The notes beneath the pieces are model-generated. The model saw only the letters and a list, made by a program, of their open reading frames with translations, did no database searches and was not told where the DNA came from. A stretch of DNA of 64,000 nt from an uncultured Candidatus Saccharibacteria bacterium (GTDB taxonomy: Bacteria; Patescibacteriota; Saccharimonadia; Saccharimonadales; Saccharimonadaceae). Below are positions 1 to 61,454 of the stretch, one piece after another. A program made the translations under genes and the position numbers. The DNA lies in NCBI GenBank assembly GCA_964454245.1, contig CAYVSX010000001.1:7379-71378 (forward strand), read 5' to 3'. How positions within the stretch are numbered: position 1 is the first letter of the stretch; every line of letters starts with the position of its first letter.

Positions 1-3000
1 GAACCGACGCCTCCCGAGCCAGAAGCCCCAGAGCGGCGCCCATTAGTATTGAGCTTTGTGGATGAAACGCATGATGCGCTGGCGGCAGCCCGCGATGCCG
101 CCGAGGCTAGGTTGCGTAACGAAGTTCAGGCCGAGCCAGAGGGTGGTAATCGCTTTACGCGTGGCTTCAAGCGCTTTATCCGTAATATATGGAAGGGCGA
201 GCACGGCCTAGCGCGCGCCTACTACCGCGAAAAGTACAAGCAAGAGGCGCTAGAGCAAATTCAGCAGCAAAATGATGTATTGGCGCACGAAACCGGCGAC
301 ATGGATGCGCGCACCAGGGCGCAATTGGCCACCATCGATCGCTTCCAGTCTGAATACGACGAATCTATCCATAATGAGGCCGGTGAGCAGCGCAAAGAAG
401 TTGCCCATAATACCGAATTTGCCCGCCGCACCAAAGAGCTTATCGCACGCTACGTTAGTGGTGAAATTACCGATGCCGGTGCGTTAGAGGAAGAGCGTGG
501 CCGCATGTTGCAAGAGTTGCAAGATAGGGGCAACGAACAGCTGATTGGCGAAGGTAAGGTGCGCATAGATAACCTACTGGCGATTGCCGATCAAGTGAAA
601 GCGATGGTCGACCATGGTGAAAGCATTGAGCGCGTGCTAGAAGGTATGAAGATTTATAGCGGCGAGGCGCGCTCAAACGTGCGTACCGAAGCGCATATAA
701 CCAAGGCAGAGCAAATAATTGATAAACTACAGCGTCGCACGGTGCTGGGTGGGTTAATTGGCCCAGTTGGCTTAGGTGCGGCAGTGGCCGGCGTGATGGG
801 CGTATTCTCTCTTGGGCGCGGCACTATCGCTAGGGCTACGGCAGTTACCGGCATACCAGGTGTGGTAACGGGCGGCTTGGCCGGCTACCGTGAGTGGACA
901 CGCTTAAAGGAAGAGCGCGCCCTACACTCGCGTGAAATGGCACAGGGCAAGCGTTACAACGAAGGCGACAAGCGCCGCACGCAGATGGAAGCAACACGCT
1001 ACGAGACTAAGCAAGCCTCGGCAGTTACTTCACAGCTAAATGAGCTATTACGTGGCGAGGGTGAGCCAGGTGCTGACGCGGTGCAGGCGGCGTATCATGC
1101 GATTGCTAAAATCGAGGCGAACATTAGTCGGTCGGATAAGGAAAAGATAGACTTTTTGGAGTTTTCGGACGTGGCGAGCGTCGAGCAAGAGCGCCGCGAC
1201 CTTGATGTGGCGCGGGCAACTGCTAAGGTGCGGCTAAAGAGTAATTTAGCCAAGCTGCCAGCTGAATTCCGCACTAAGTTTGGTATCGATGAAAGCAAGC
1301 CAATCAATGCCAGCCTAGCGGCCTATATGGCTGAAATGGATAAAGATATTACTAGCGAAGTCACTGCTAAGGACAAGGTTTATAATAAGTTGCGTAACCG
1401 ACGGGTAGCGACAGCCGTTGCGATTGGTGCGGTAGGTGGCTTTACTGCCGGGCTGGCAGCGCAAGAGATAGTGGCATCCGTCAACAGCAATTACGATGGA
1501 TTGATTGAACATATGATACACGGCGGCGCGCCATCTGCTGATGGCCGACAAACCGTGCTAGAGGGCTGGTTCCATGGCCAGCCGGGTGAACACATTACCG
1601 CATCAGATAAATATGTGCCGCACAGCATAGGGGCAAATAAAAATAACATTGATTTGCCCGATAATTACAAGGTGGTTAATAACCCAGACGGTAGCTTTGG
1701 AATTGAAGCGCCAAATGGCACTAAGGTTGCTGATAATCTAGAGCTAAATAAGAGCGGCAAGCTAACCAAAGATAGCTTGGCTATACTGACTGATAAAAAA
1801 ATTGAAATGCATCAAAACATGGTGGACAGCGGCAAAACCGAGAAAGTATCGGTGAAGGAATACTTGAAGCTGCATAAAGATGATGTAACGCATGTAAAGC
1901 GTGATTTCTGGTACGACCAGAATACGCCAAAGCCAAAGTTCGATAAAAACGAGCTTGGTCTCGATTGGGGCGGCAAAGACCACACTGGCGTTGGCAAAAA
2001 CGGTAGCATTAAGATGACGATTAGTGGTATGACAGCCGATGGGTCGTACCATGGTGATAAAAATGCGGCATGGAATAGCCTAGCTAAAAAGGGTGACATG
2101 GCGTTGGCGGTATCGGCTACACGTGGCACGCAAACCGATGTATTTTTGATAAAAGTAAAACCAAATGGTAGTATAAATATCCCCGAAGATAGACCAGCTC
2201 GTAAGTTCTTTAGTATTAAGAACGGCCACGCGGTATTTAAGGGCGCATTTGCTGAGGCGGTAGAGGTACGCGAAACAAAGGATGGCACCACTCATATTGC
2301 GCCGCTAGCTACCATTACTGGTGAAAACTCAGTAAAGAGTATAGACCAAACCGTAAAAGTACCACACATCAAGCTAACTCCACCAGAAATCAACACCCCT
2401 GGCCGCGAGGTAGAGGGCTTTGGTGTGCCGGTATGGACACATCGCCGCCCGCTTGAGAGAATAAAGCGCGAGGCCATGGGTAATGGTTACGGATATGGGT
2501 ATGGCTCGGCATACTCTTTCGAGCGAAACTTTGCAGAGAAATGGCTGACTGAACGCTCGCCTAGCCTAAACAGCAACCCGGATGTCGATCTTAACACGGG
2601 TAAAGAGCTTAAGTGGTACAAGAACCAGCAAATAAAAATACGTGGTGAGTCTTACATCAAAGAGCTTGACGGGTATATTGATAATAGTAAAGAGCTACAG
2701 TCTATTGGTAATGAAACGAAAGCAATTGTTTGTATCCCTGTAGCGGCAGCAAATGAGTCGGAAAATATTTATCGCACGCTATCCATGTTTGGTCGCCAAG
2801 ACATTGAGTCACAGAAAGCCAGCGTTATATTCCTTAATGTCAACTGGAAGCAGTCGCTTGAGAATGACCCGGCAGAGAAAGCTAAGATTCAAAAAACATT
2901 GGCCGAGATTGAGCGGGCTAGACAGGACTTTCCGGATCTTCGCATCGCAACTTTTGAGAAAGTATGGTCTGATCAATTTGTAAAAGAGAAACAGGGTAAG

Positions 3001-4014
3001 ATATACGGTGAAGTGATAAAGGTCTTGTATGACACTGCGGCCTTTGCCATGGAAAGAAGTATTGCCGAAGGTAGACGCGATTCGAGCGCGGAAGCATTGT
3101 TGATTACGAATGATGCAGATACCGAAGGTATGAGCTATAAATATTTGAAAAACTACATAAAATCCATGGAAGAAAATCCAAAGCAAGATACCTTTACTGC
3201 AACCATTCGGCGAGGAGTAAGCGCGTACGAAGACTATCCTGGCTATGCTATGGTTTCTAACTTTTATGCGAATACAAGCATGGCTATGCTTCACCATCAG
3301 GCAAAAGGTGATGGCGGAGTTTCGACGGATGGTCCGAATTCTGCATTCCGTATGTCTTTGTACGCCGCGATGGGTGGCGTGGAAGCCGAAATTGGCGGTG
3401 GCGCTGATGGTGCGTTAGCGCAACGTGCATGGATTGCACGCTTTAGCCCTGGAAAACAAACTATATGGCGCAAAATTCAAGGTAAGAAAGAAGCGGCTGG
3501 TTCAAACCGTGTTTTGGGTAAGTTTGTATCTGGCGCTTCGGTTGACACGATGCCTGACCGGCTTTTGGGCGCGTATCGTCAAGGCAAATGGGTTGCGAGT
3601 GGATGGGACGGGTTTGATAACGGTGGTTATGAAAGTCGTGAGGCAGTGGCGCAGGCTGGTACGATTGGGCCAGAAAACCCTGAAACAGAGATCGACGATA
3701 TTGCGAAACGAATTGAAATATCCATTTCTGCTTTTGGCTCTCGATGGTGGCGCAAGCCATCGGCTATTGCTACGTCATTAAGAACGACATTCGGCCCGAA
3801 TAAGCCTGGGCATGAGCTGTATCGCTATACTTGGGACTTCTCAAAGAGTAGTGACGGCGCCTTTGTCTTTGAGTTTACAGATGAGGGCAAGAAGGAATTA
3901 CAGAAACGCATGCTATATGACCGTAAAGGGAACCGCTCAAACATTGGCGCACGCATGCGACATCATCTTTATGATAAGCTAAAGAGTGATAGAGAGCCTG
4001 TATTACTAAGCTAG
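1..4014 (+). CDS. Large multidomain protein (>1336 aa, 5'-truncated): Pro/Glu-rich start, helical region, Gly/Ala hydrophobic segments, beta-rich middle, C-terminal GT-A (GT2-like) glycosyltransferase domain
   Basis: Frame is open from base 1 (EPTPPEPEAPERRPLVLSF...), so the true start lies upstream of the window. GT2-like motifs: AIVCIPVAAANESENI (~2722), LLITNDAD (DxD at 3112-3120), GPNSAFR...YAAMGG. Confidence 0.75.
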   Translation, partial: EPTPPEPEAPERRPLVLSFVDETHDALAAARDAAEARLRNEVQAEPEGGNRFTRGFKRFIRNIWKGEHGLARAYYREKYKQEALEQIQQQNDVLAHETGDMDARTRAQLATIDRFQSEYDESIHNEAGEQRKEVAHNTEFARRTKELIARYVSGEITDAGALEEERGRMLQELQDRGNEQLIGEGKVRIDNLLAIADQVKAMVDHGESIERVLEGMKIYSGEARSNVRTEAHITKAEQIIDKLQRRTVLGGLIGPVGLGAAVAGVMGVFSLGRGTIARATAVTGIPGVVTGGLAGYREWTRLKEERALHSREMAQGKRYNEGDKRRTQMEATRYETKQASAVTSQLNELLRGEGEPGADAVQAAYHAIAKIEANISRSDKEKIDFLEFSDVASVEQERRDLDVARATAKVRLKSNLAKLPAEFRTKFGIDESKPINASLAAYMAEMDKDITSEVTAKDKVYNKLRNRRVATAVAIGAVGGFTAGLAAQEIVASVNSNYDGLIEHMIHGGAPSADGRQTVLEGWFHGQPGEHITASDKYVPHSIGANKNNIDLPDNYKVVNNPDGSFGIEAPNGTKVADNLELNKSGKLTKDSLAILTDKKIEMHQNMVDSGKTEKVSVKEYLKLHKDDVTHVKRDFWYDQNTPKPKFDKNELGLDWGGKDHTGVGKNGSIKMTISGMTADGSYHGDKNAAWNSLAKKGDMALAVSATRGTQTDVFLIKVKPNGSINIPEDRPARKFFSIKNGHAVFKGAFAEAVEVRETKDGTTHIAPLATITGENSVKSIDQTVKVPHIKLTPPEINTPGREVEGFGVPVWTHRRPLERIKREAMGNGYGYGYGSAYSFERNFAEKWLTERSPSLNSNPDVDLNTGKELKWYKNQQIKIRGESYIKELDGYIDNSKELQSIGNETKAIVCIPVAAANESENIYRTLSMFGRQDIESQKASVIFLNVNWKQSLENDPAEKAKIQKTLAEIERARQDFPDLRIATFEKVWSDQFVKEKQGKIYGEVIKVLYDTAAFAMERSIAEGRRDSSAEALLITNDADTEGMSYKYLKNYIKSMEENPKQDTFTATIRRGVSAYEDYPGYAMVSNFYANTSMAMLHHQAKGDGGVSTDGPNSAFRMSLYAAMGGVEAEIGGGADGALAQRAWIARFSPGKQTIWRKIQGKKEAAGSNRVLGKFVSGASVDTMPDRLLGAYRQGKWVASGWDGFDNGGYESREAVAQAGTIGPENPETEIDDIAKRIEISISAFGSRWWRKPSAIATSLRTTFGPNKPGHELYRYTWDFSKSSDGAFVFEFTDEGKKELQKRMLYDRKGNRSNIGARMRHHLYDKLKSDREPVLLS

Positions 4015-4024
4015 GGAGGGATAT

Positions 4025-4360
4025 ATGAATAGCGACGAGAAACTACAGCAACTTGAAGAATATCGAGCGCAAGCGCTGGAAAGCCTAGTAGGTATAAGTG
4101 ATTACCTTGTGAATAGCGAAAATGCTGATTATCAGACGATAATTACACTTGCGCATTCAACAGGTAATACTACACTATTTGGTAAGGCGCTTGAAATGAT
4201 TGACAAGATAGACGATCGGGAAGAGCGTAGCGAGGCTTTATTGGCGTTTCTTGATGGTATTGAGTATGCTATTGCTGATAATGTGGGGGGTGATAAGGAG
4301 GTCGACGTAACTCGCGAAGGCGATACTAGGGACACCGAGGAAAAGCTGCCAACGACGTAG
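4025..4360 (+). CDS. Small acidic helical hypothetical protein (111 aa)
   Basis: GGGAGGG RBS before ATG; 10 nt after the preceding gene; amphipathic helices. Confidence 0.8.
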   Translation: MNSDEKLQQLEEYRAQALESLVGISDYLVNSENADYQTIITLAHSTGNTTLFGKALEMIDKIDDREERSEALLAFLDGIEYAIADNVGGDKEVDVTREGDTRDTEEKLPTT

Positions 4361-4515
4361 AGGTGGTATACTGTAAGTAAGGAGAGTCTACAGATATGAA
4401 TGAAGACGACCAGACCAACTAGACGCTAAGAGTATCATTATTTCGTCAGCGTAAAACCCTTGTGCTTTACACCAGTGTGATGTATACTGCAAACAAAAGT
4501 TATAAAAATAAATAA

Positions 4516-7041
4516 TTGGAACAAACAATGGCAGAAGGACTCCCTAAAAAAAGCAATGAAGGTAGCGGTGAAGAGGTGCTGTCGCTTGATGAGGCGCGCA
4601 AAAGATTGCTAGAACAAGCGGCGGCTGGCGATACTGAGCCGTCGATTCTTGAAGATGAGCGGGTCGTGGAGCCTGTTGCGGAAACCAATGAACCAGAGAC
4701 GGTTGGGGTTAGTGAGGCGACCGCTCCAGAAGTTGCAGCCGACCAAGCTGAGAACGATCCATACAATGAACTATCTTTTGCCCAACTAGAAAAGCGATGG
4801 CATGACCTAACCGTTGCCTATAGTACTAGCTATGGAGATGCAACATCCAAAAAACTAGCCACCGATGCTTACGAGAAACTAAAATCACCCGAATTGACTG
4901 AACGACTAAAGCGTGAGCTGCAAGACGCCAGAAATAAATACGGTAAGCTATTCGATAAGTCATCAGAAGCATCGCGTTTGGTGGCTGCTGATGTAACGGC
5001 TAGATATGATGACCTAAATAACCTAATTGCATGGCAAGCTAAAGAGGCCGAAAAGGCTCCTGCTAGAGGTGAAATAAATGAAGCTACGGATACTAGCGAG
5101 CCTGCTGAGCCTACTAAAACTAGCGAGCCAAGCGAACCTGCGGAACCTATAGAGCCAGCAGAGCCTGTGGTGCCGCTAGAGCAACCCATGGAACCTTCAG
5201 GTTCTGTAGAGACACCTGCTGAACCTATAGCGGAAGCTAGTGCTGGCGAGGAGACCGAGAGCGGCGAGCCCAACCCTGCAGAAGATATCGACGACAAGCA
5301 AGGCCCCATAGACAAGCATTTTGAAGCCTACAAAAAGGCCATAGGTGACGAGGCAGAAGAGCAGCGCGCAGCCTATGATGCTATGACCGATGAAGAAAAA
5401 GTGGCCTATCATGAAAACGCGCAAACAAACGATTTGGCAGACAAAATCTTAGAAAACCTGCAAAAGCCAGGTGACGAAGCTGAGCCTGTTGGCGCAGACG
5501 GCGCACCAGACAATACGCCACCGACCCACGAGTCTGAACCGCCTACCGAACCAACGGTGGATCCAACTACTACCGAACCAGGTGAGCCAACTACCGATCC
5601 AACTGCCGAGCCATCACCAGAGCCGCTATTGCCGTACGACGAAGCCGAGCTAGAGCGCTTGCGCCGAGCATACATTGAATCGCCAACCGCCGAAACCAAG
5701 CAAGCCTTGAGCGACTATGTCGAGACTCATACTGTCGAGAAAATGCCGCTAAACGAAGCCTATGATAAAGCCTACAACGAGCGAATTAGTGAAATTCGTG
5801 CCGAAGTATCGGCGCTAGAGGGCGAGGGTGGCGTGAAGTATGGCGACCGGCTAGATGCGGCACTGCGCAGCTATGCCGAGCTAAAGGCTAATGATGAAAC
5901 CTACAATGGCAATATACGTATAGGCAAGTGGACGGTCTATCGTGGCCGTGCTAAGCGCGAAGCCAAGCTAAAAGAACGCGAAAGCGAGCTGATGGCGGCG
6001 AAAATCGCCTACGAACTAGCTGTTCAGTCAAAAATCGAGGCAGCCCAGCTGTACTTTGGCAATGAGCAGCAGGTAAAAGCTCAGCGGCGCAACGACCTAC
6101 TAACACGAGTACGTGAGCTAGATAAACAAACGCGCGACGCCACTAACGATGTGCTTGATGCGCGTCAAGATAGGGGCGGCTGGTTGAGAAAAGCAGCCAT
6201 AGGTATAGGCAACTGGCTACGTGGCGGCGGCAAGGTGAAAAAATGGCTAAAGGCTGGCGGCACCGGCCTAGTGGTAACTGGCGGTACCAAGATATTGGCT
6301 TCGGTGGCTGGAGCTGGCTTCCCAATAGGTACACTACTAGTTGCGGGCGTAGGTGCGGGTGCTAGCCTGGCGGTGCGTACTAGTGCCAAGACGGCGGCGT
6401 TAAATGACCTACGCAAGGAAAGTCAGGGCCGGACGGCTATGAGTGACGCCGAATTTGAGGAATTACGAGCATCTACAGAGCGTAATGAAGAGAGTGGTGA
6501 GAGAGGCTCTGAGTATATTATTAAGAAGATTTTTGAAAACTCTAGAGAACAAGGGCGCGAAAGGGTGGATAAGGCTAATAAAGAAGCTCGTGACGTGATG
6601 CTACGATACGGTGTTGGCGCGGCTGCTGGTACACTGGCATCACTTGGCTGGGATTTGGTTAACCAACAGCTATCGGGTACTCACCCACCAGATGGAGCGG
6701 GCAATGATAAGCTGGGCAAGCCTGCGGTCGTTGATGGCTCGGGTGTAGGCGCCGATATGGGTAATGGCGGAGGCAGATTTGAGTGGCCGCGCGGCGCCAG
6801 TAAAATCACAAGTGACGAAGGTTGGTATCACCAGTTCCAAGACATGGGCATGAGCAGTAAAGAGGCTCAGGCGCTATTTGCCGATAAAGATGTTATGAAG
6901 CAATTGGTGAAGATTGATGCAGCCTATGTAGACAATTCGTCGACCATTGGCGGCTATGGCATCAATATGCCAGCCAACGGACATTTGTCTAAAAAAGCCA
7001 TGGAAATCATCGGTACGGCTATGAAAGCTAAGGGATTTTAA
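4516..7041 (+). CDS. Large acidic Pro/Glu/Thr-repeat protein with coiled-coil region and Gly/Ala hydrophobic segments (start may be ATG 4528)
   Basis: 841-aa ORF; EP/TEP repeats; hydrophobic stretches GGTGLVVTGG...GASLAV (~6253-6375) and YGVGAAAGTLASLGWDLV (~6607-6660); upstream TATACT box. Confidence 0.8.
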   Translation: MEQTMAEGLPKKSNEGSGEEVLSLDEARKRLLEQAAAGDTEPSILEDERVVEPVAETNEPETVGVSEATAPEVAADQAENDPYNELSFAQLEKRWHDLTVAYSTSYGDATSKKLATDAYEKLKSPELTERLKRELQDARNKYGKLFDKSSEASRLVAADVTARYDDLNNLIAWQAKEAEKAPARGEINEATDTSEPAEPTKTSEPSEPAEPIEPAEPVVPLEQPMEPSGSVETPAEPIAEASAGEETESGEPNPAEDIDDKQGPIDKHFEAYKKAIGDEAEEQRAAYDAMTDEEKVAYHENAQTNDLADKILENLQKPGDEAEPVGADGAPDNTPPTHESEPPTEPTVDPTTTEPGEPTTDPTAEPSPEPLLPYDEAELERLRRAYIESPTAETKQALSDYVETHTVEKMPLNEAYDKAYNERISEIRAEVSALEGEGGVKYGDRLDAALRSYAELKANDETYNGNIRIGKWTVYRGRAKREAKLKERESELMAAKIAYELAVQSKIEAAQLYFGNEQQVKAQRRNDLLTRVRELDKQTRDATNDVLDARQDRGGWLRKAAIGIGNWLRGGGKVKKWLKAGGTGLVVTGGTKILASVAGAGFPIGTLLVAGVGAGASLAVRTSAKTAALNDLRKESQGRTAMSDAEFEELRASTERNEESGERGSEYIIKKIFENSREQGRERVDKANKEARDVMLRYGVGAAAGTLASLGWDLVNQQLSGTHPPDGAGNDKLGKPAVVDGSGVGADMGNGGGRFEWPRGASKITSDEGWYHQFQDMGMSSKEAQALFADKDVMKQLVKIDAAYVDNSSTIGGYGINMPANGHLSKKAMEIIGTAMKAKGF
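5092..5630 (+). repeat. Degenerate coding micro-repeats (EP / SEP / TEP)
   Basis: TSEPAEPTKTSEPSEPAEPIEPAEP and TEPTVDPTTTEPGEPTTDPTAEPSPEP; actagcgagcc occurs twice. Confidence 0.7.
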
Positions 7042-7056
7042 TAAAAGGGGTGGGCA

Positions 7057-7482
7057 ATGTTTGATATAGATGATGACTTTTTAACCAGTATTGGCTACGA
7101 TGTCAGTGTGCTAACGCCAGAGCAGCGCCAGCAATATAGCGGCGAGATACAAGAAGAAATGAACCAGCGGCTATCGGAGCGCTTGGCTATGGAGCTGACT
7201 GAGGAGCAAGCTGCGGATATGCAAACGATTCAAGATAGCCATGAGCGGGCCGAACAGTGGCTATACGAATTTCATAGCGATTTTGCTAGCCGAGATGACT
7301 ATCAATCACTGGTACAGGCGCTGGGCGAGCTAGATGCCAAGCAATTTTACGCTACAGCGCTGTGGATGCAAGATGCCGTGCCGGGCTATGGGGTAATAGC
7401 CCAGGAATTGCTAAACGAGTACCAGGCTGAGCTAATAGAAAAGGCTAAATTGGTGGACACGGCACTGGGCGATGTGGCGTAA
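7057..7482 (+). CDS. DUF5663-like small acidic protein (divergent paralog 1)
   Basis: MFDIDDDFLTSIG...RLSERLAMELTEEQ...QWL aligns by eye with the next gene; AAGGGG RBS. Confidence 0.7.
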   Translation: MFDIDDDFLTSIGYDVSVLTPEQRQQYSGEIQEEMNQRLSERLAMELTEEQAADMQTIQDSHERAEQWLYEFHSDFASRDDYQSLVQALGELDAKQFYATALWMQDAVPGYGVIAQELLNEYQAELIEKAKLVDTALGDVA

Positions 7483-7519
7483 AGTGGTACAATAGATTTA
7501 GTAACCATACGGAGGAACT

Positions 7520-7963
7520 ATGTTTCAATTAGACGATAAATTTTTGCAAGATGTAGGCCTAGGCGGCCTGCCCGAGGATCAGAAGAAGTTATTTTTAGAC
7601 CATTTTCGTGAGCAGCTAGAGCTGCGTGTGGGGACGCGCCTGAGTGAAGGCCTAAGTGACGCTCAGCTAGAAGAGTTTGAAAGCTTTATCGACCGCAAAG
7701 ATGACCGCGTAAATGCGTGGCTAGCGGCTAATGTGCCAAACTACGAGGAAGATTCGATCTACCAGCAGCTAAAGGCTGGTGCGCCCGAGCAAATCCCACA
7801 AAACGTAGTGTTGGCCGAATACGCCAGCCTAAAGTGGCTCGGCCTCAATCGCCCCGACTATAAAGATGTCGTTACGGCGACTATGAACGAGCTAAAAAGC
7901 GAAATTATCGCCAACCGCGATGCTATTTTGGGTGCCGATACTGGCGCTCAGCCAGCTGCATAA
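7520..7963 (+). CDS. DUF5663-family protein (paralog 2)
   Basis: MFQLDDKFLQDVGLG...HFREQLELRVGTRLSEGLSDAQLEEF, recalled as a typical CPR DUF5663 signature; own TGGTACAAT box and GGAGG RBS. Confidence 0.75.
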   Translation: MFQLDDKFLQDVGLGGLPEDQKKLFLDHFREQLELRVGTRLSEGLSDAQLEEFESFIDRKDDRVNAWLAANVPNYEEDSIYQQLKAGAPEQIPQNVVLAEYASLKWLGLNRPDYKDVVTATMNELKSEIIANRDAILGADTGAQPAA

Positions 7964-8856
7964 CCGCGCAAAAAGTCAGCCCCACTCATAGTTTTACCAC
8001 TTGGGGCAATCACTTCGTCAATTGAAAGGAACGCACCGTTCGCACACTCTAGGTCGAGCGGTGTTTCTTTTGTCATCACACCATGGGCTTTGGTGACTAT
8101 TACGGTATGTTGGCCGATGGTAACACGCGAGCGGGGGAAGCCTAGGTAGGCGCGGATGTGGGCTTCGGCCTCACCCGGTGTTAGTTTGGCGAGGTCTAGC
8201 TGGCTCATGTCTTTTGTCAGAAGCGAACAGTAGGTGGCTGCGGGCTCATCTTGTGGTGTGGCTTGCAGCACGCCAGATACAATTTTCGGCAAGTTACTCA
8301 CGAGCAAGTTAGCACCAAGCGTGAAGAGTGTGTCGTACAGTTCGGGCTTGGTTTCGGTAAAATCTAGCGCGTAGGGCACCTGGGTGTATATTGGGCCGGC
8401 ATCCATGGCGTATTCCAGCTTCATGATGGTCACGCCGGTTTTGCTATCGCGGTTAATAATCGCCGATTCGATAGGCGATGGCCCGCGGTACAGCGGCAGC
8501 AGCGATGGGTGCACGTTAATGATGCCGGGCGTAAATAAATCTAGCGTGGCCTGGGGGATGATTTTGCCAAAGCTCACCAGTACGCCCACTGGGCTGCCTA
8601 GCTGTTTTATGTCAGCGGTAATATCTTTTAGCTTGGCCGGTTGCCACACTGGTATATTATTTTCCACCGCGTAGGTTTTTACGGCTGGGGCGGTTAGCTT
8701 GTTACCGCGACCCTTGGGCGCGTCAGGCTTGGTCACCACGGCCGCTACTGGGTAGCCGGCGTTCACTAGGGCTTTTAGCGCCAGCAAACTATGGTCTTCG
8801 GTGCCAAAAAATACTATCGGGCTATTAATCCCACAGGTCGGCGTTGTCTTTGACAT
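7948..8856 (-). CDS. fmt: Methionyl-tRNA formyltransferase
   Basis: IVFFGT, VVTKPD, INVHPSLLPLYRGPSPI, MDAGPI motifs; downstream of def. Confidence 0.95.
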   Translation of the reverse strand: MSKTTPTCGINSPIVFFGTEDHSLLALKALVNAGYPVAAVVTKPDAPKGRGNKLTAPAVKTYAVENNIPVWQPAKLKDITADIKQLGSPVGVLVSFGKIIPQATLDLFTPGIINVHPSLLPLYRGPSPIESAIINRDSKTGVTIMKLEYAMDAGPIYTQVPYALDFTETKPELYDTLFTLGANLLVSNLPKIVSGVLQATPQDEPAATYCSLLTKDMSQLDLAKLTPGEAEAHIRAYLGFPRSRVTIGQHTVIVTKAHGVMTKETPLDLECANGAFLSIDEVIAPSGKTMSGADFLRGYAAG

Positions 8857-9400
8857 GCGTGTCGTAATCCAGCGGGTCTAGCTCGCCCTTATCGTTTAGT
8901 CGGTAAAAGGCATCGGTTTGGTCACGTATATGGTCTATAAACACGATGCCGTTGGTGTGGTCGATCTCGTGCTGCAATACGCGCGCCAAAAATCCTTCGG
9001 CCTTTATGCGCACTTCCTGGCCGTTTATGTCCATCGCTTTTACGCGCACCTTGCCATAGCGCGGTACTTTGCCATAAAAGCCGTTGACGCTTAGGCAGCC
9101 TTCGTAATCCTCGATCATTGGGCCTTCGCCCTTAACAATTTCGGGGTTGATTAGCGGTATAAATTCCTGGTTGGTTTTGTCGTCAAAGTCGCCGCGCACT
9201 ATCACTACGCGCTCTAGGTGGTCTACCTGCACTGCGGCCAGGGCAGCGCTAATTTCGTGCGGACGTGATGCCTCCCAGTCAATGCTGGCGGCGGTCATAT
9301 CGGCAATGAGTGTTTTTACGTCGTCGGTAATGACGTGCACGCGGGTTGATTTTTGCCGCAAGTGCGGGTTGGGTAGGGTGATTATGTTTTCTTTTTTCAT
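8825..9400 (-). CDS. def: Peptide deformylase
   Basis: EGCLS and QHEIDH motifs; the first motif is atypical (AALAAVQV instead of GxGLAAxQ). Confidence 0.95.
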   Translation of the reverse strand: MKKENIITLPNPHLRQKSTRVHVITDDVKTLIADMTAASIDWEASRPHEISAALAAVQVDHLERVVIVRGDFDDKTNQEFIPLINPEIVKGEGPMIEDYEGCLSVNGFYGKVPRYGKVRVKAMDINGQEVRIKAEGFLARVLQHEIDHTNGIVFIDHIRDQTDAFYRLNDKGELDPLDYDTHVKDNADLWD

Positions 9401-14396: not shown

Positions 14397-14416
14397 AGTA
14401 TGCAGGTTGCTAATAA

Positions 14417-15103
14417 TTATCGATCACGTTCGATATGAAAACCAAACGGCAAGCCACTGTCGTCTGATTCGTCATCGCCATTGCTATCAACAGAATCAAA
14501 CTTTCCGTCCGGGTTGCGTACCAATTCGCCGTTGTATAGTTCTTCCGCCTGTTTGGCTATGATGTCCTTTTCATCCACCGTAAACTCAGCTTTGGCAGCG
14601 GCTAGCTGGGCATCGCGCTCAGCATCTCCGCTATCGTTATGGTGGCCAAAGTAGGGCTCATCATCTTCAAAATCATTAATCTCAATACCATCTTGCTCTG
14701 CGTCAGCTGCTTGATCGGCAACTAGGGCAGCTAGTTCGGCGCCACGACTATCAACTTCTGGATATTCAGATGTGCTAACATCTGCCGATTCCTCTGTGGC
14801 TGAGGTGGCGGGTTTATTTTCAATCTTTCTTCGCTGGATAGCTGCATAAACTGCCTTCATGCCGACCTTGGCATCGGTAGTAACAGGCGCTGGAACTATC
14901 TTGGGTTTTTCGGCATCTGCGGCAGCTTTAGCGGCTTTTTTAGTTATCGATTCACGCAATGAAGCGTGGAAAGCAGCCCTCTTATTATCGTTGGCGGGGC
15001 GGTTAGTCTCTAATAGGCTAGCAGTGCGCTCGGCATTATCAGCTGCTACTTGGGCGTTAATTGCTTCAACTCGTGCGCTAGGAACATAGTTATGCTTATT
15101 CAT
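14417..15103 (-). CDS. Acidic low-complexity hypothetical protein
   Basis: Ala/Asp/Glu-rich ORF; start moved to ATG 15103 (TATAAT 7 nt upstream). Confidence 0.65.
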   Translation of the reverse strand: MNKHNYVPSARVEAINAQVAADNAERTASLLETNRPANDNKRAAFHASLRESITKKAAKAAADAEKPKIVPAPVTTDAKVGMKAVYAAIQRRKIENKPATSATEESADVSTSEYPEVDSRGAELAALVADQAADAEQDGIEINDFEDDEPYFGHHNDSGDAERDAQLAAAKAEFTVDEKDIIAKQAEELYNGELVRNPDGKFDSVDSNGDDESDDSGLPFGFHIERDR

Positions 15104-15174
15104 ATCTTCTATTATACACATTTTTGCAAAAAAGTCAATGTTATTCTTAAAATACCACTGTAAATTGCTTAACC

Positions 15175-15606
15175 TTGCCAATTTTTGCTGGGCTGCTAAA
15201 CTTACCTATACGCTACGCAAGTTCACAATCGAATCGAGGTAAAATGCTCCAAAAGGTGAACGGCGCAAAGGTGTCGGTGATGGTGCTGGCGTGTCCCAGC
15301 TACCAAGACATCGCCCGTGCCATGCAAGACTGCACCCCTGTGGTGCTAGAGACCGCCAGCTACGCCAACTGTGTCAAATCGGTTGGCAAGTTCGAACTGG
15401 TGGATATCCGCAACCTGCGCTTTACCAAAGATGGATTCAGCTTTGGCGGATCGATCGTCGGCATAGAGGTTGACGCCGACCCCAATGATGATCAGCGATC
15501 GGTGGTGTATGCCAAATCTGGCCGAGCGGTAGTCGTGGCTGATGATCGGCCAGGCGGCGGCGCCAGCATCCAGTTCATCATTAACCTGTCGCTGCACGTC
15601 ATGTAG
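15175..15606 (+). CDS. Hypothetical beta-rich protein (start may be ATG 15244)
   Basis: Fills the intergenic gap, followed by a terminator; no recognisable motif. Confidence 0.5.
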   Translation: MPIFAGLLNLPIRYASSQSNRGKMLQKVNGAKVSVMVLACPSYQDIARAMQDCTPVVLETASYANCVKSVGKFELVDIRNLRFTKDGFSFGGSIVGIEVDADPNDDQRSVVYAKSGRAVVVADDRPGGGASIQFIINLSLHVM

Positions 15607-15634
15607 CCAACCCATCCTCGCCCCCAGCAGGTCG

Positions 15635-15679
15635 AGTACCCACTCCTTGCTGTGGCGGCAGGGGTGGGTACTTTATTTT
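15635..15679 (+). terminator. Rho-independent terminator
   Basis: agtacccactcc...ggggtgggtact followed by ttatttt. Confidence 0.6.
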
Positions 15680-15722
15680 CGGGTATTGCCAAGCGGTGGC
15701 TTCTCTGTTACAATACATACAT

Positions 15723-15938
15723 ATGGTACAAGTAACACGTAAAGACGAACGCGAAGCGAACGAAAACTTAATTCGCCGCTTCAACCGCAAGGTTTTGCAA
15801 AGGGGTTTAATTGCCGAGGCTAAGGCCGGTATGCGATTTGCCAAGCCACTTTCTAAGCCAGAGCGCCGCGCCAAGGCGATTATTCGCCGCGAGCGCAAAG
15901 CAGATAAATTGGCCAAAATGCGCCTAGGAATCCGTTAG
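15723..15938 (+). CDS. rpsU: 30S ribosomal protein S21
   Basis: MVQVTRK...ENLIRRFNRKV...FAKP; sits directly upstream of yqeY, the usual arrangement. Confidence 0.85.
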   Translation: MVQVTRKDEREANENLIRRFNRKVLQRGLIAEAKAGMRFAKPLSKPERRAKAIIRRERKADKLAKMRLGIR

Positions 15939-15944
15939 GAGACT

Positions 15945-16406
15945 ATGGTGGGAGCGCTAAGTCAGCGCATTGCCGATGAAATGAAAGCCGCCCTTCTTGG
16001 CGGCGATCGTTTTGTTGGCGAAACATTGCGCAACCTACGGGCAGCAATATTAAATGAAGAGGTAGCCACCGGCCAGCGCGAGACCGGCCTTAGCGACGCA
16101 GATGTCGAAAAGGTGATTGCGCGCGAGGTAAAAAAGCGCGGTGAAAGCGCCAAGCTATACCGCGAAAACAATCGGCCCGAACTAGCCGAGCCCGAAGAGG
16201 CCGAGGCGTCGGTGCTAAAAAAGTTTTTGCCCGAGCAACTGGGCGAGGCCGAGCTGCAAAAAATTGTGGACGCAAAAATCACCGAACTGGGTGTAAGTGG
16301 GCCAGCCGCTATGGGGCAGGTAATTGGCGCTGTAAAAGCGGCGGTAGGCAACGCGGCCGATGGCGCGACGCTAGCAAATATTGTTAAAACAACACTAAGT
16401 AAGTAA
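15945..16406 (+). CDS. GatB/YqeY domain protein
   Basis: MKAALLGGD...REVKKRGESAKLY...MGQVIGAV. Confidence 0.9.
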   Translation: MVGALSQRIADEMKAALLGGDRFVGETLRNLRAAILNEEVATGQRETGLSDADVEKVIAREVKKRGESAKLYRENNRPELAEPEEAEASVLKKFLPEQLGEAELQKIVDAKITELGVSGPAAMGQVIGAVKAAVGNAADGATLANIVKTTLSK

Positions 16407-16425
16407 CGAAGGGTAAAAAGTAGCA

Positions 16426-16971
16426 ATGATTTTATTGTTTGGTGCCACCGGCGCGGGTAAAAGTATGCAGGGGCAAATGCTCGCCGTGCGCCAGGGGTGG
16501 AAGTGGCTGAGTACTGGCGAAATGCTACGCCAAAGTACCGACCCAGAGGTAATTGCCACCCTAAAATCTGGTGACCTAGTGAGCGACGAGCAGACCTACC
16601 AGGTGTTTGAGGCCGCCGTGCAAGAGGCGCGCGACAAACAATATGGCAACATCATCATCGACGGCTTTCCGCGCACCAAGGCGCAGGCGGCGTGGCTAGA
16701 TGATTACATGACCAAAATGGGCGAAAAAATCGATATTGTAGTAGCGCTAGAAGTGCCCGAAAGCGAAATTATGGCTCGCCTAGAAAAGCGCCACCGCATG
16801 GAAGATACGCCCGAAACCATCGCCAAGCGCATGACAATTTACCGCCAAAAAATGTACCCAGTGTTAGGGATATTTGCCGAAGCCGGCGTGCGGATTGTGC
16901 ACCTAGATGGCACCGGCACGGCGGGCGAAGTGCACGACCGCATTTACGACGAGGTAATGGGGGCAATTTAG
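16426..16971 (+). CDS. adk: Adenylate/nucleoside monophosphate kinase (short LID)
   Basis: GATGAGKS P-loop, STGEMLR, IDGFPRT, R.ED; upstream of map. Confidence 0.85.
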   Translation: MILLFGATGAGKSMQGQMLAVRQGWKWLSTGEMLRQSTDPEVIATLKSGDLVSDEQTYQVFEAAVQEARDKQYGNIIIDGFPRTKAQAAWLDDYMTKMGEKIDIVVALEVPESEIMARLEKRHRMEDTPETIAKRMTIYRQKMYPVLGIFAEAGVRIVHLDGTGTAGEVHDRIYDEVMGAI

Positions 16972-16974
16972 CCT

Positions 16975-17745
16975 ATGCCACAGCAAGATTTGATTACGGG
17001 GCGCAAAACCCCCGAACAAATCCAGGCTATGCGCGACGGCGGCAAGCTGCTGGCGCGCATTTTTGCCGATCTGCGCGCCTATGTGCAGCCGGGGCAAACT
17101 GAGCAGCAAATTGATGCTTTTGTGGCTGGTAAAATTACCGAATACGGCGCGGTGGCCACCTACAAAACGAGCGAAGTTAACTTTCCGGGCGTAATTTGCA
17201 TCAGCACTAACGACGAAGTTGTGCACGGCGTACCAACCGATTACACCCTGCGCACCGGCGATGTAGTTAGCTTTGACCTAGTAATTACTTATAAAGACAT
17301 GAAAACCGACGCCGCTTTTACCATGGTGGTGGGCGAACCAGCCAAGGGCGCAATTAAGCACCTGCTAAGCCTGACCGAGCGCAGCCTGTATGCCGGCATA
17401 GATGCCATAAAAGGCCCAGTATACACCGGCGATATTGCTGCCGCGGTAGAGCAGGTGCTAGCCAAGGCAAAATTAGGCATTATACGCGAACTAGTAGGCC
17501 ACGGCGTGGGGCTAAAAATGCACATGCCGCCCGATGTGCCAAATTACGGCCAAAAGGGCAGCGGCGTATTGCTAAAACCGGGTGACACCATAGCCATAGA
17601 GCCCATGGCCACCCTTGGCGGCGAAGGCATTGTAGAGCTAGATGACGGCTGGACAATCGCCACCCGCGACGGCAGCCTAGCCGCCCATTTTGAACACACG
17701 GTGCTGATTACTGAAGACGGTGCGGAAGTTTTAACGCAGTTGTAG
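16975..17745 (+). CDS. map: Methionine aminopeptidase type I
   Basis: NDEVVHG, GHGVG, IAIEPM, AHFEHTV. Confidence 0.95.
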   Translation: MPQQDLITGRKTPEQIQAMRDGGKLLARIFADLRAYVQPGQTEQQIDAFVAGKITEYGAVATYKTSEVNFPGVICISTNDEVVHGVPTDYTLRTGDVVSFDLVITYKDMKTDAAFTMVVGEPAKGAIKHLLSLTERSLYAGIDAIKGPVYTGDIAAAVEQVLAKAKLGIIRELVGHGVGLKMHMPPDVPNYGQKGSGVLLKPGDTIAIEPMATLGGEGIVELDDGWTIATRDGSLAAHFEHTVLITEDGAEVLTQL

Positions 17746-26333: not shown

Positions 26334-26387
26334 GGAGCGCAAATCATAATTTTGCGGGTGGAACCGCAGAAAGAGGTGTTGAAGAGT

Positions 26388-28223
26388 ATGAAGATTAAAA
26401 AGTTAATGTTTACTGGCTTAGCAGTAGCCGCGATTATTGCACAGCCATTTTACGCTGTGTTGCAGGGGGGGGTCGCCCACGCAGCTAGCGGTGTGGTTAC
26501 TAATATTAATCCAGACGGCTGGGAATGGGGTGGCGCGGCATGGCCGGCTGGCGTTCCTGGTACAGCAACAATCAAAGCCGAAACGGGTACCGGTGGTAAT
26601 GGCGCATTGTTGCTTTCTACACCAGCTGACGAAAGCTATATATGGACGGTAAAGCAGGTTAATGAAACGCTAGCCAGTGTAAATACATTATCTTACAAAA
26701 CTAAGCACGTTGCAGGGCCTGCATATACAGCACCTGCATTACTACTTGGTATTGATGCAGATGGTGACACCGCAACTACGGCGGACGGTTTCTATGCTTT
26801 TTTTGAACCTGTGTACAACCATCCGACGCCAAGCACTATAGGTGCTGGCTGGAACACTTGGAATATTGATGCAGCCACATCTAATTTTTGGAGCTTTAGC
26901 ACGGTGGGTTCTAAGGGTGGTGCGAATGGCGCTAATATGTTTACCATTGATTATGTAAAGAGTGTTTATCCTTCAGCATCTGTTGTTGAGTATTACCTAA
27001 ACATGGGCACCTACAACACCGGCTGGAACGCTTGGGCCGACCAGATTACTGTCAACGGCACTATGATCGCTGATTTTGAACTTGAGGAAGTAGTAACAAA
27101 TGTAACAACCGGCGCCGTGTATGAAGACCTACAGTCTGCCGTGGATGCTGCAAGTGCAGGTGATGAACTACGCCTCAACCAGAACATTACGCTGAGTGAT
27201 GATGTTGATATAATTAAACCTTTGACTATTGACGGCAACGGAAAAACCATCACAGCAAGCTTTAATAAAACTGGCAACGATAATAACTCGGCGCTAGCCG
27301 TTTCAGCAAATGACGTGGCTATTAAAAATGTTAAACTCGTAGGCAACAATCTTGATTGGCCTCTTGGCTTGCATGGCATAAATGCTTACCAAGTGACCAA
27401 CCTACTAGTTGATGGCGTAACCGCAGAAAACTTTTTGACTGGTATCTTGTATAATGGCTCAACTGGCACGATTCAAAACGTCCATACAATCAACAACAAG
27501 TGGCACGGTATAAATATCGATAAGGTTGGCTCAAATGTACAAGTGCTTGGTACAAATACTCACACCGAAACCCTTAATATCTATGCCGAAGATATTAACA
27601 CAGTAACGATTTATGCTCCCGCATATGAATCTAGCCATCCTGGGTTGATAGACCCTAACACTTTACTGCCTCGTCCAAGCGACCGCGTTTACACACTTAA
27701 AGTTGTAGATAACGGCGACGGTGATGACAAAGAAGCCGACAATACCGGCAATGGTGGTAGTACTTCAGCCTCTGCTAATGCTAACAACGGCGAAACCATT
27801 GCAACCACCAGCACCAGTGCTACGACTGTAGCCGACGAAGCAGTAGTTGCCGTAGCCGGCGCAACCGATACAAAAACTGCTACTAGCGACAAAGACGTCG
27901 ACGTACTAGGCGACGACCAAGCCACCGATACATCTAGCACACAAGATAGCAAAAAGCACTGGTCGCTAGTAAACCTACTGCTAGCAGCTGCCGCAACCGT
28001 AATGTCTGTCATTACACTTGCTGGTATCCGTGGTAGCCAGGGCAAGCAGCGCAACCTACGCCTACTAACCCTAGTACCTGCCGTAGTTGCAATCGTAGCA
28101 CTGCTACTAGTAGAGGACTTTACGGCTAAGCTAGGCTGGGTAAACGGCTGGACACTACTGTTCGCCCTAATCGCCATCGGCCAAATCGCCCTAGTAGCTG
28201 GCAACAAAACTACTGAAGAATAA
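26388..28223 (+). CDS. Secreted, membrane-anchored surface protein with parallel beta-helix (pectate-lyase-like) module
   Basis: Signal peptide MKIKK...AHA; KPLTIDGNGKTIT and GINID repeats; Thr/Ala stalk; three C-terminal TM helices. Confidence 0.8.
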   Translation: MKIKKLMFTGLAVAAIIAQPFYAVLQGGVAHAASGVVTNINPDGWEWGGAAWPAGVPGTATIKAETGTGGNGALLLSTPADESYIWTVKQVNETLASVNTLSYKTKHVAGPAYTAPALLLGIDADGDTATTADGFYAFFEPVYNHPTPSTIGAGWNTWNIDAATSNFWSFSTVGSKGGANGANMFTIDYVKSVYPSASVVEYYLNMGTYNTGWNAWADQITVNGTMIADFELEEVVTNVTTGAVYEDLQSAVDAASAGDELRLNQNITLSDDVDIIKPLTIDGNGKTITASFNKTGNDNNSALAVSANDVAIKNVKLVGNNLDWPLGLHGINAYQVTNLLVDGVTAENFLTGILYNGSTGTIQNVHTINNKWHGINIDKVGSNVQVLGTNTHTETLNIYAEDINTVTIYAPAYESSHPGLIDPNTLLPRPSDRVYTLKVVDNGDGDDKEADNTGNGGSTSASANANNGETIATTSTSATTVADEAVVAVAGATDTKTATSDKDVDVLGDDQATDTSSTQDSKKHWSLVNLLLAAAATVMSVITLAGIRGSQGKQRNLRLLTLVPAVVAIVALLLVEDFTAKLGWVNGWTLLFALIAIGQIALVAGNKTTEE

Positions 28224-28242
28224 ATAAGGCTACTGACCAACC

Positions 28243-28271
28243 AATAGACCCCGCAAACTGCGGGGTCTATT
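28243..28271 (+). terminator. Hairpin terminator
   Basis: aatagaccccgc aaact gcggggtctatt. Confidence 0.7.
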
Positions 28272-28422
28272 ATGTTGTGGGTAAAATGTCACTGTAAAAT
28301 ATGTTGTAGTGGTTCCTGAAATTTTCCCTAAAACGCTTGATTTTTTGACAAAAGTGTAGTATAATTGTGTAAAGATCATAAAGCTGGTGTGGAGACCAGC
28401 AGTGAGGTGAGAGGAATATTTT

Positions 28423-43296: not shown

Positions 43297-43417
43297 AATA
43301 AGCCTAGTATACCACAAGCGAAAATAGGGAAGGATGCTATAAATTAGCATAATGCTATTGACTTTTTAGCAACTTTTTGCTACTATAATGAATAGTAATA
43401 AAAGTCAAAAACAAACA

Positions 43418-52409: not shown

Positions 52410-52595
52410 ATTGTAAAAAATAATCACCCTACCACCCCTATATTTAGTGTAGTATTGTGTATTTTACACCCACATGCCACTAGCGCTAGCGGTATATCGT
52501 GATATTATAAAAGCAAGAAGGCGCTTGGCGCTGGAGGGTAAAAAGTAACGAGTAGTGCCACAACTGTGCAGCACACCATTTTAAGAGGGAGTAGT

Positions 52596-57131: not shown

Positions 57132-57425
57132 TTATTGTAGCGCTTCGCTGCTATCGGCTAGTTCGCCCAGTAGTATATCGATTTCGTCGGTTACGATGTC
57201 GGTGAGGTCGGGCACGTTGGCTTGTAGCCATTGTAGTACCGCGCCATCGTCGGATTGTTGCAGGCTGGCCAGCTGTTCAGCCTGCTCTGGGCTTAGTTCT
57301 AGTACAATTTCGTTGATTACGCGCTCATCGAGCGTGGTTTCAAAGTGCTCGGCCAGCGATTGGTAATCTGGTTCGCTTAGCTGAATACCGAGGTCGGTGA
57401 GTAGTTGGGGGGTAAGTAGGGGCAT
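57132..57425 (-). CDS. DUF5663-like small acidic protein (paralog 3)
   Basis: LLTDLGI...HFETTLDERV...ELSPEQ...WLQANVPD matches the pattern of 7520-7963. Confidence 0.7.
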   Translation of the reverse strand: MPLLTPQLLTDLGIQLSEPDYQSLAEHFETTLDERVINEIVLELSPEQAEQLASLQQSDDGAVLQWLQANVPDLTDIVTDEIDILLGELADSSEALQ

Positions 57426-57437
57426 ATGGTTGTTCCT

Positions 57438-58820: not shown

Positions 58821-58942
58821 TGTTTGTTTCCTTGTATTTTATAGTGCAATTATAGTATAAGCGGTATAGAATTGCAATCAAATGTACCAGCCGTGGCGTA
58901 CGAGCGGTAAAATAGTATGAATAAGGGTGAAACGGAGGGGTA

Positions 58943-59236
58943 ATGAAATCAGCTGATATTTTACGGCGGGCGGGGCGAAATTTACGCCAGGCCAAGGCGC
59001 GGACAATTTTAACCAGCCTAGCGATTGGCGTGGGCTTGGCGTATTTGGTGACACTACTAAACCCAGCTATCACTGGCGCGCTTAACCTAGAGTCTGGCAC
59101 GCAGCAGTTGCAGCTACGGTGGCTGCCGTGTGTGGTGTTGGTGGCGGGGCTGATGCTAGTAGCCGTGATTTCTGACTGGTTCCCAAGCCGCAAAGCAGCG
59201 AAACTAGACCCCATTGAAGCCTTGCGTACAGAGTAA
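58943..59236 (+). pseudogene. Internally deleted ABC permease (in-frame remnant of a paralog of 59979-61358)
   Basis: N-terminus RRAGRNLRQAKARTILTSLAIGVG is fused directly to the C-terminus ...FPSRKAAKLDPIEALRTE. Confidence 0.8.
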
Positions 59237-59262
59237 CATAAGTATACAATAAGGATCATAAA

Positions 59263-59970: not shown

Positions 59971-59978
59971 CCTACACA

Positions 59979-61358: not shown

Positions 61359-61454
61359 GGGCTCCGCCACGTTCCGCGGCTCCGAAACTTCACGATTGAA
61401 AACAAGTTTTCATCGGAAGATTTCCTTGCGAACAGCCACCGGCTGTTCTCACCC
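61357..61454 (+). repeat. Structured ~100-nt dispersed element, copy B
   Basis: Homologous to the reverse complement of 12156-12256; followed by a hairpin at 61458-61489. Confidence 0.8.

Follow-up and report, generated by a model that had tools for sequence, protein, structure and literature searches.

Small acidic proteins of the family DUF5663 are systematically adjacent to, and encoded on the same strand as, large and fast-evolving proteins in Saccharibacteria, and we tentatively read them as cytoplasmic partners, of a chaperone or adaptor type, of surface proteins that would be inserted without a signal peptide. The starting point was a stretch of 64,000 nucleotides (nt) from an uncultured Candidatus Saccharibacteria bacterium (contig CAYVSX010000001.1 of assembly GCA_964454245.1, positions 7,379 to 71,378), hereafter the window, which has a G+C content of 51%, comes from a genome of the Candidatus Saccharimonas type and whose sequence is present in wastewater metagenomes. 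A first-pass annotation of this DNA had noticed three cassettes in which a large protein is followed by a small acidic helical one, and had proposed DUF5663 as a chaperone or adaptor family for effectors aimed at the host. The layout is as it described: in the list of open reading frames (ORFs), the pairs A/B, C/D and F/G (Table 1) are co-oriented, with gaps of 10, 15 and 12 nt, and a further DUF5663 gene, E, follows D.

Large and small proteins are paired in a conserved locus

A scan of one genome per species returned 380 orthologs of E, all of them in Saccharibacteria-type records; 80 loci (L numbers below) were analysed, representing 51 E clusters after dereplication, with gene calls made greedily as the longest ORFs. 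E itself has 1962 close homologs and 1099 representatives of 50%-identity clusters. The core gene order is ROK (on the minus strand), S1, infB, a variable insert and E, followed by the convergent genes fmt, def and priA. Among the 40 clusters with infB visible, 30 have a plus-strand ORF of at least 450 amino acids (aa) directly before E or before a small DUF5663 paralog; since most loci were sampled via E, such adjacency counts are biased. In one cluster (L059) the insert between infB and E looks degraded. Every small DUF5663 paralog in the surveyed loci adjoins a large protein on the same strand, and the cassettes take three forms: a C-type, in which a protein of 400-1000 aa comes before E, optionally with a D-type paralog between the two; an A-type, with a gene of about 102 aa, a protein of 1100-1700 aa and often a B-family gene of about 100 aa on either strand; and a G-type, in which a DUF5663 paralog of about 100 aa comes directly after a charged protein of 130-460 aa. 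The first-pass annotation had asked for just such a survey of neighbourhoods, and its outcome agrees with the proposed association.

For a sample independent of E, metagenome contigs were searched with the C-terminal domain of the C-family, which gave 11 loci. A DUF5663 gene lies directly downstream in all ten that have downstream sequence (a D and E pair in three of them), each time in the infB-to-fmt setting. A query with the whole length of C matched only itself, low-complexity words having swamped the candidates, and the homologs of C came from the fetched loci instead. The pairing of large and small proteins is thus not due to chance, being found in about 50 dereplicated lineages and in loci sampled independently of E, and it belongs to a conserved Saccharibacteria locus, where the C-family occurs between infB and fmt as a single, syntenic gene passed on vertically. 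A mobile effector island was also considered, and was rejected because the synteny between infB and fmt is fixed.

DUF5663 membership of the small proteins

E is a clear member of Pfam DUF5663 (PF18908; 62.1 bits against a cut-off of 23.7, E = 8e-17), and G, at 23.4 bits, falls 0.3 below that cut-off. D has no Pfam match in our scan and is listed as a "weak" DUF5663 in precomputed data. A family hidden Markov model (HMM) built from 69 diverse representatives of an exhaustive homolog search recognizes both paralogs [D, 72.9 bits (1e-20); G, 48.6 bits (4e-13)], as does BLASTP (D-E 2e-10, G-E 6e-8). B, which we tried as a member, was rejected: it gives no match to the family HMM, and its BLASTP value against E is 0.34. 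The first-pass annotation had described two of the three partners as divergent paralogs of E, and E as the conserved copy, and we arrive at the same assignment, with D and G as the paralogs, B unrelated, and E as both the clear Pfam member and a slowly diverging one. G is without about 30 central residues of E, and B, D, E and G are all of similar character (97-147 aa, isoelectric point (pI) 4.1-4.4). The genes of about 102 aa found upstream of A-family genes are DUF5663-like as well (hhalign probability 91%, E = 1.1e-6, with 65 columns aligned in the N-terminal core). One such gene, with infB beyond it, therefore probably lies just past the left edge of the window, upstream of A, whose beginning is cut off.

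The C-family protein diverges together with D

Most of the large proteins upstream of D or E (51/61) form one BLAST family, defined by the C-terminal 320 aa, and in most Saccharibacteria it is a member of this family that fills the interval between infB and DUF5663. Its members share an acidic N-terminal region of tandem repeats, one to three hydrophobic segments (only one in many members) and a conserved C-terminal domain with the motif GEGW..F.EMGI..W..L..GP.L...Y...GEWRIS.PG.L in the family alignment. The HMM of this domain scores 70 bits at aa 754-841 of C, which is its sole match in the window. The domain has no Pfam match at E <= 1 in 21 members and no match in the PDB; an identity as LysM or SPOR, considered from the pattern of the motif, was dropped on the same Pfam result for the 21 members. 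N-terminal of the membrane segments, length and sequence are highly variable within the family, and this repeat region is hypervariable and breaks short-read assemblies. The contigs of at least 23 independent metagenome-assembled genomes stop inside the tandem repeats of the C-family gene (for example QPGQSGTTPNY or PRPADDGTNPDA, in several copies), ending about 1.3-2 kb upstream of the D-type gene (L027-L030, L032-L039, L041, L042 and L044-L052).

The identities between the window and other genomes separate the genes of this locus clearly. Relative to a close genome (L008), they are 95% for E, 88% for def, 86% for fmt, 81% for priA, 54% for D and 32% for C; relative to a distant, oral-type one (L031), they are 70% for E, 78% for def, 66% for fmt, 61% for priA, 44% for D and 25% for C. 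An ortholog of D of equal size is found at the equal position in both. Judged by these values, E is at least as constrained as the neighbouring housekeeping genes, and D is an old paralog that is diverging together with C and not with E. A cognate pair accompanied by a general member would look like this, and we propose D as the putative cognate partner of C.

Fitness data from Southlakia epibionticum

DUF5663 is listed in the supplementary tables of Wang et al. 2023 (PMC10633639), and the term is absent from the searchable main texts. The locus of Southlakia epibionticum reads SEML1_0160 (infB), SEML1_0161 (hypothetical, 767 aa), SEML1_0162 (142 aa, weak DUF5663), SEML1_0163 (144 aa, DUF5663), SEML1_0164 (fmt) and SEML1_0165 (def) (PMC10633639), so that by position and Pfam content, rather than by sequence comparison, SEML1_0161 to SEML1_0163 stand at the places of C, D and E. 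In the transposon sequencing (Tn-seq) of that study (Table S1), where genes are classed as essential (ES), as giving a growth defect (GD) or as non-essential (NE), SEML1_0161, at the place of C, scores GD/ES/ES, its insertions dropping from 99 to 12, 0 and 0; the D-type gene is likewise GD/ES/ES and the E-type gene NE/GD/GD, and both of these are core and Patescibacteria-enriched (PMC10633639). The three genes are not discussed by the authors (PMC10633639), although this is the group's only genome-wide fitness screen and the pair at the C and D positions is essential in it.

Predicted topology of the large proteins

Both A and C contain Gly/Ala-rich, transmembrane-like hydrophobic segments, of which the first-pass annotation made no mention. 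In both families the last hydrophobic segment has a cluster of K/R residues before it and neutral or acidic residues after it, and because of the K/R residues the positive-inside rule predicts that the N-terminal parts are cytoplasmic and the C-terminal parts extracytoplasmic, with A and C anchored N-in/C-out in the cell's own membrane. The last segment of C is weaker than its hairpin and falls below the thresholds of the hydropathy scan; that of A is a predicted signal-anchor, which would leave the C-terminal 846 or so aa outside the cell. The first-pass annotation had seen no classical signal peptide, and we agree: there is none in C, in F or in the visible part of A, all of which begin with acidic, Pro- and Thr-rich sequence. 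Such a predicted topology is more in keeping with surface proteins anchored in the membrane than with effectors injected in soluble form.

The A-family giant and B

A aligns over nearly its full length, at 36-42% identity, with proteins of 1336-1572 aa (L086, L017 and L026), and only over residues 56-800 or so with five other types of the family (L056, L073, L021, L060 and L003/L004/L007). Because these five types align over that part only, the C-terminal 500 or so aa of A form an exchangeable module, which under the topology prediction would lie outside the cell; a standalone homolog of the window-type module exists as a protein of 516 aa (P0275). The module has no Pfam or PDB sequence match. 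N237, D238 and D240 are invariant in six homologs, as is a G-x-G-x-D, and an AlphaFold2 model made from three sequences has low confidence (predicted local distance difference test, pLDDT, 48.7) and shows a beta-alpha-beta core at residues 70-236. Foldseek with this model gave only weak matches, to glycosyltransferases, at E >= 0.02. Because the N-D-x-D and G-x-G-x-D motifs follow the predicted core, the module is possibly an enzyme domain resembling the glycosyltransferase fold GT-A.

Relatives of B (26-32% identity by BLAST) follow the A-family genes of L003, L004, L007 and L026, and other A-family genes are followed by small acidic ORFs of a similar kind. The association occurs on either strand and irrespective of the C-terminal type of A, and it is sometimes absent. 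In some genomes the B-family gene is opposite in strand to its A-family neighbour (L003/L004/L007 9557-9880 and L056 7494-7862), so that co-transcription is not needed for the association.

The F/G cassette

In L017, L023 and L059, unrelated charged proteins have an ortholog of G (33-44% identity) encoded downstream of them, and the proteins paired with G-type paralogs share no detectable sequence similarity. The third DUF5663 gene of Southlakia, SEML1_0221 (101 aa), comes after two hypothetical genes beside serS (PMC10633639). F/G lies about 3.6 kb from serS (window 57132-63758), a comparable position, and this type of cassette also seems to be positionally conserved.

Fold of DUF5663 and its occurrence outside Saccharibacteria

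The AlphaFold2 model of E (pLDDT 95) is compact and all-alpha, with eight helices, no transmembrane segment and no signal peptide. According to Table S2 of Wang et al., the AlphaFold database neighbours of SEML1_0163 and SEML1_0221 are labelled as trigger-factor C-terminal/SurA-type (TM-scores 0.85-0.87), and the domain parser for AlphaFold models (DPAM) puts SEML1_0163 in the LTXXQ motif family (0.864) (PMC10633639). Our profile searches for secretion, toxin, defence and phage families returned little: the NCBIfam models SycN (E = 0.14) and FliJ (E = 0.051) miss their cut-offs by a wide margin, neither the large nor the small proteins match a WXG100 or LXG domain of Pfam or NCBIfam at E <= 1, PADLOC has no match for A, C, E and F, and PHROGs has none below E = 0.009 for A-G. 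PDB sequence searches with A and C gave nothing meaningful.

In some of 150 representatives DUF5663 is the C-terminal module of another protein. The fusions are to TIR_2 (P0154, P0179), to AAA_16-wHTH-TPR STAND-like NTPases (P0229, P0261), to TPR (P0224) and to a TrwB/TraG/HerA-like ATPase that scores best as a HerA or defence-type ATPase (P0267); tandem DUF5663 repeats also occur (P0124, P0127), and the fusions are rare, in clusters of 1-2 members. In L087, which looks actinobacterial (56-60% G+C) and not like Saccharibacteria, a gene for a TIR-DUF5663 protein lies beside nSTAND1, a second TIR protein and a zeta-toxin gene, and on the same contig a HerA/TrwB-like ATPase is followed directly by a stand-alone DUF5663; the regions of interest are 8001-9326 and 14416-17326. 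Because such fusions exist, DUF5663 appears to behave as a portable protein-interaction module.

A tentative model and its alternatives

To account for these observations, we propose, with rather less than even confidence, that the DUF5663 proteins are cytoplasmic partners of chaperone or adaptor type that act on the cytoplasmic parts of N-in/C-out surface proteins lacking signal peptides. The proposal starts from gene order, family membership, conservation, divergence rates and fitness, and from these we infer topology, physical binding and activity. As small acidic all-helical proteins of the cytoplasm, they would bind their clients without ATP, at the acidic repeat region, the K/R/E-rich helices and the Gly/Ala-rich hydrophobic hairpin. 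The clients would then insert N-in/C-out by a late signal-anchor, having no N-terminal signal peptide, and would display their C-terminal domain at the cell surface, about 75 aa in the C-family and about 850 aa with an exchangeable module in the A-family. D would be paired with C, as its co-evolving cognate, and G with F; A would be paired with the DUF5663-like protein of about 102 aa to the left of the window, with B as an extra, unrelated small subunit. E may be the slowly evolving general member, and D, G and the type of about 102 aa may be client-specific paralogs.

Several observations weigh against this model, beyond the biased sampling of adjacency and the positional orthology in Southlakia mentioned above. 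In 9 of the 40 clusters with infB visible, infB is followed directly by E with no large neighbour, and many C-family genes are without a D-type paralog. The transmembrane and topology calls come only from a hydropathy scan, and in F that scan finds no hydrophobic segment. SEML1_0161 could score as essential through polarity on SEML1_0162, and SEML1_0221 and its two hypothetical neighbours are all non-essential in the Tn-seq data (PMC10633639). As for the fold, Foldseek with the model of E finds nothing in the PDB (best E = 1.9) or among viral structures, and a DUF5663 profile run against PDB sequences matches no trigger factor, SurA or Spy chain, so the resemblance to chaperone folds is a lead taken from the published table of other authors.

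Alternatively, the DUF5663 proteins could be stoichiometric structural or regulatory subunits of an envelope complex (a surface, attachment or division scaffold) and not chaperones, a reading that we consider possible but doubtful. It would suit the conserved pairing, the essential genes at the C and D positions and the many coiled-coil-like charged helices and repeats of the large proteins, and the constraint on E, at least as strong as on its housekeeping neighbours, is what one expects of a hub subunit. However, no known scaffold domain was detected in Pfam, NCBIfam or the PDB, and the absence of mutual similarity among the partners of G-type paralogs would be unusual for a fixed complex; on sequence data alone the structural and the chaperone readings are inseparable.

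The first-pass annotation had likened the large proteins to effectors injected by type III, type IV or type VII secretion systems (T3SS, T4SS, T7SS), which here would mean delivery into the actinobacterial host, by a T4SS for example, with the DUF5663 proteins as dedicated secretion chaperones or adaptors for the coupling ATPase. What is supported of its proposal is the chaperone or adaptor part, in favour of which are the adjacency, the divergence of D with C, the published chaperone-annotated folds and the HerA/TrwB link; the host-targeted effectors are not, and we regard delivery into the host as unlikely. No evidence for injected effectors was found, and the idea is not supported because the large proteins are predicted to be anchored in the cell's own membrane by a K/R-flanked last segment, the C-family genes are single and syntenic in a core locus, the Southlakia gene at the C position is essential, no secretion genes are adjacent and the model of E matches no solved secretion chaperone, whether of T3SS class I (CesT/SycE-like) or class II (TPR) or of another kind (Foldseek against the PDB). 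No T4SS or VirD4 gene occurs in the infB-fmt loci or among the annotated genes of the window (about a third of its genes are unannotated). The T4SS is essential in Southlakia, and genomes of the Candidate Phyla Radiation (CPR) have many VirD4-like genes away from virB4, which would suit effector delivery, yet in Southlakia it is the genes at the places of C and D that score as essential, the VirD4 homolog being reported as dispensable. Effector delivery would also agree with the small acidic partners beside large proteins, with the exchangeable C-termini of the A-family, and with the hydrophobic hairpins, which are also found in translocated membrane effectors. The fusion of DUF5663 to a TrwB/TraG/HerA-like ATPase, and its place directly after such an ATPase in L087, point the same way, but the fused ATPase scores best as HerA or as a defence-type enzyme.

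Taken together, the HerA/TrwB link and the exchangeable heads of the A-family keep a secretion-related reading alive at low probability. In its widest form, which we would call a long shot, dedicated cytoplasmic DUF5663 chaperones or adaptors of both Patescibacteria and Actinobacteria would bind giant surface proteins without signal peptides at their charged helices and hydrophobic hairpin and pass them on to a HerA/VirD4-like ATPase or to the T4SS that is essential in Saccharibacteria. If so, the C- and A-family proteins would be the cargo or contact machinery that has long been sought behind the epibiotic lifestyle, and the exchangeable enzymatic heads of the A-family would act on the host envelope.

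It is also improbable, in our judgement, that DUF5663 works through homotypic contacts as an adaptor domain in systems of conflict or immunity, with D, E and G linking their neighbours into a signalling or defence assembly. The fusions to TIR_2, STAND-like NTPases, TPR and a HerA-like ATPase, the tandem repeats, and the company of TIR-DUF5663 in L087 would all be expected of such an adaptor. Against this, the fusions are rare and L087 is actinobacterial-looking, whereas E of Saccharibacteria lies in a housekeeping locus with infB, fmt and def and is fitness-relevant without phage challenge; PADLOC, moreover, finds nothing for the window proteins. Least credible of all is a polymorphic toxin-immunity pair, in which A would be a toxin shown at the surface, its enzyme domain exchangeable, and B the immunity protein: the conserved N-terminal 800 or so aa with at least two unrelated C-terminal types, the standalone homolog of 516 aa and the small acidic gene directly downstream of A would fit, but relatives of B follow A-family genes with both types of C-terminus, which argues against a module-specific immunity protein, the B-family is sometimes on the opposite strand or absent and does not co-vary with the module, Pfam and PADLOC-type profile searches find no toxin domain, and the module is glycosyltransferase-like at best.

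In the obligately epibiotic Saccharibacteria, the majority of essential genes without a known function are still unexplained. Three core, Patescibacteria-enriched DUF5663 families are now linked to specific fast-evolving membrane proteins, and a hypervariable cytoplasmic repeat region joined to a conserved, probably surface-exposed domain is a pattern expected under host- or phage-driven diversification. The pairs C-D, F-G and A with its upstream small gene can be tested as partners, and offer a route to the role of a widespread and uncharacterised domain.

Features of the window

Table 1. Features discussed in the text, in nt of the window; residues of A are counted in the window frame
Feature	Position	Strand	Evidence or remark
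A: A-family giant protein	1(49)..4014	+	ORF open at left edge; at least 1337 aa in window
A: Gly/Ala-rich hydrophobic hairpin, aa 246-300	736..900	+	Predicted from Kyte-Doolittle hydropathy only
A: last hydrophobic segment, aa 468-493, KLRNR just before	1402..1479	+	Predicted; positive-inside rule
A: variable C-terminal module, 537 aa; N-D-x-D at nt 3109-3120	2401..4011	+	6-homolog alignment
B: B-family small acidic helical protein, 111 aa, pI 4.1, not DUF5663	4025..4360	+	
C: C-family membrane protein, 841 aa	4516..7041	+	ORF and family membership
C: degenerate tandem peptide repeats (SEPAEPT..., PTEPT...), acidic Pro-rich region, predicted cytoplasmic	5095..5613	+	Tandem Repeats Finder (TRF)
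C: Gly/Ala-rich hydrophobic hairpin, aa 584-624	6265..6387	+	Hydropathy scan
C: last hydrophobic segment, about aa 722-742	6679..6741	+	Predicted; aligned to family members with a single transmembrane segment
C: conserved C-terminal domain, about 75-85 aa, predicted extracytoplasmic	6775..7038	+	Alignment and HMM
D: divergent DUF5663 paralog, 141 aa	7057..7482	+	BLASTP and family HMM
E: conserved DUF5663 protein, 147 aa	7520..7963	+	Pfam
F: 460 aa, acidic Pro-rich N-terminus, long K/R/E/Q-rich helices	57438..58820	-	
G: short DUF5663 paralog, 97 aa, downstream of F	57132..57425	-	

The first start codon of A in the window is at 49; the protein has an acidic, Pro-rich N-terminus and charged helices, and its true start is placed some 170-240 codons before the left edge. 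For C, the public gene call begins at the ATG at 4528 and gives 837 aa, and the TRF arrays are at 5095-5165 and 5543-5613. A candidate promoter ahead of C at 4459-4489 (TTGTGC, 17 nt, TATACT) was missed by the consensus scan. The first-pass annotation had credited E with its own promoter, for which the sole basis is an extended -10-like motif, TGGTACAAT, at about 7486-7494, 26 nt ahead of the start of E; a scan for the sigma-70 consensus matched nothing, and neither supports nor excludes a separate promoter. At the other end of E (plus strand), its 3' end shares 16 nt with that of fmt (minus strand; 7948-7963), a convergence kept in nearly all loci examined. The window holds two more large envelope-type proteins at 26352-30708, one of 623 aa with hydrophobic segments at the N- and C-terminus and no Pfam match, the other of 761 aa with a pectate-lyase-like adhesive domain and, at the C-terminus, a hydrophobic anchor. 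Two further proteins without a Pfam match (43388-45184, 598 aa, pI 4.7, with an acidic N-terminus; 52566-54929, 787 aa) are not followed by a small acidic gene.

Comparison with known systems

The chaperones named in the published annotations, trigger factor (C-terminal part) with the SurA N-terminal domain, and the LTXXQ proteins of the Spy/CpxP kind, are, like DUF5663, small, all-helical and ATP-independent. The likeness to trigger factor extends to gene context, since E adjoins fmt and def, which act on nascent chains; Southlakia, however, also has a normal trigger factor, which is dispensable (PMC10633639). D gives very weak matches to LTXXQ and Spy (E = 0.14 and 0.057), but Spy and CpxP are periplasmic and DUF5663 is cytoplasmic.

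A small acidic gene beside that of a large protein with both coiled coils and a hydrophobic hairpin is also the arrangement of the class II chaperones of the T3SS (SycD/IpgC) and of the Eag chaperones that serve prePAAR effectors of the type VI secretion system (T6SS), and shielding of a hydrophobic region in the cytoplasm would be a plausible shared role. The DUF5663 fold, in contrast, is neither TPR nor Eag-like, and the clients here are syntenic core genes whose products are predicted to be retained in the cell's own membrane. To our knowledge, Saccharibacteria carry neither a T3SS nor a T6SS. The order of the A-type cassette (small helical protein, large protein with a variable C-terminus, small acidic protein) recalls the Lap proteins, small helical targeting partners of LXG toxins, and the T4SS adaptors or chaperones VirE1 and IcmS/IcmW, a likeness extended by the link of DUF5663 to a TrwB/HerA-like ATPase, which is seen only in non-Saccharibacteria contexts; it differs from them in having no LXG or WXG domain and no adjacent secretion genes, and in that B does not co-vary with the module.

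Finally, DUF5663 resembles the effector-associated and Death-like domains in being also a terminal module on TIR proteins, STAND-like NTPases and a HerA-like ATPase, in contexts that look like defence islands. The DUF5663 proteins of Saccharibacteria differ from these in that they stand alone, as core and fitness-relevant members of a housekeeping locus.

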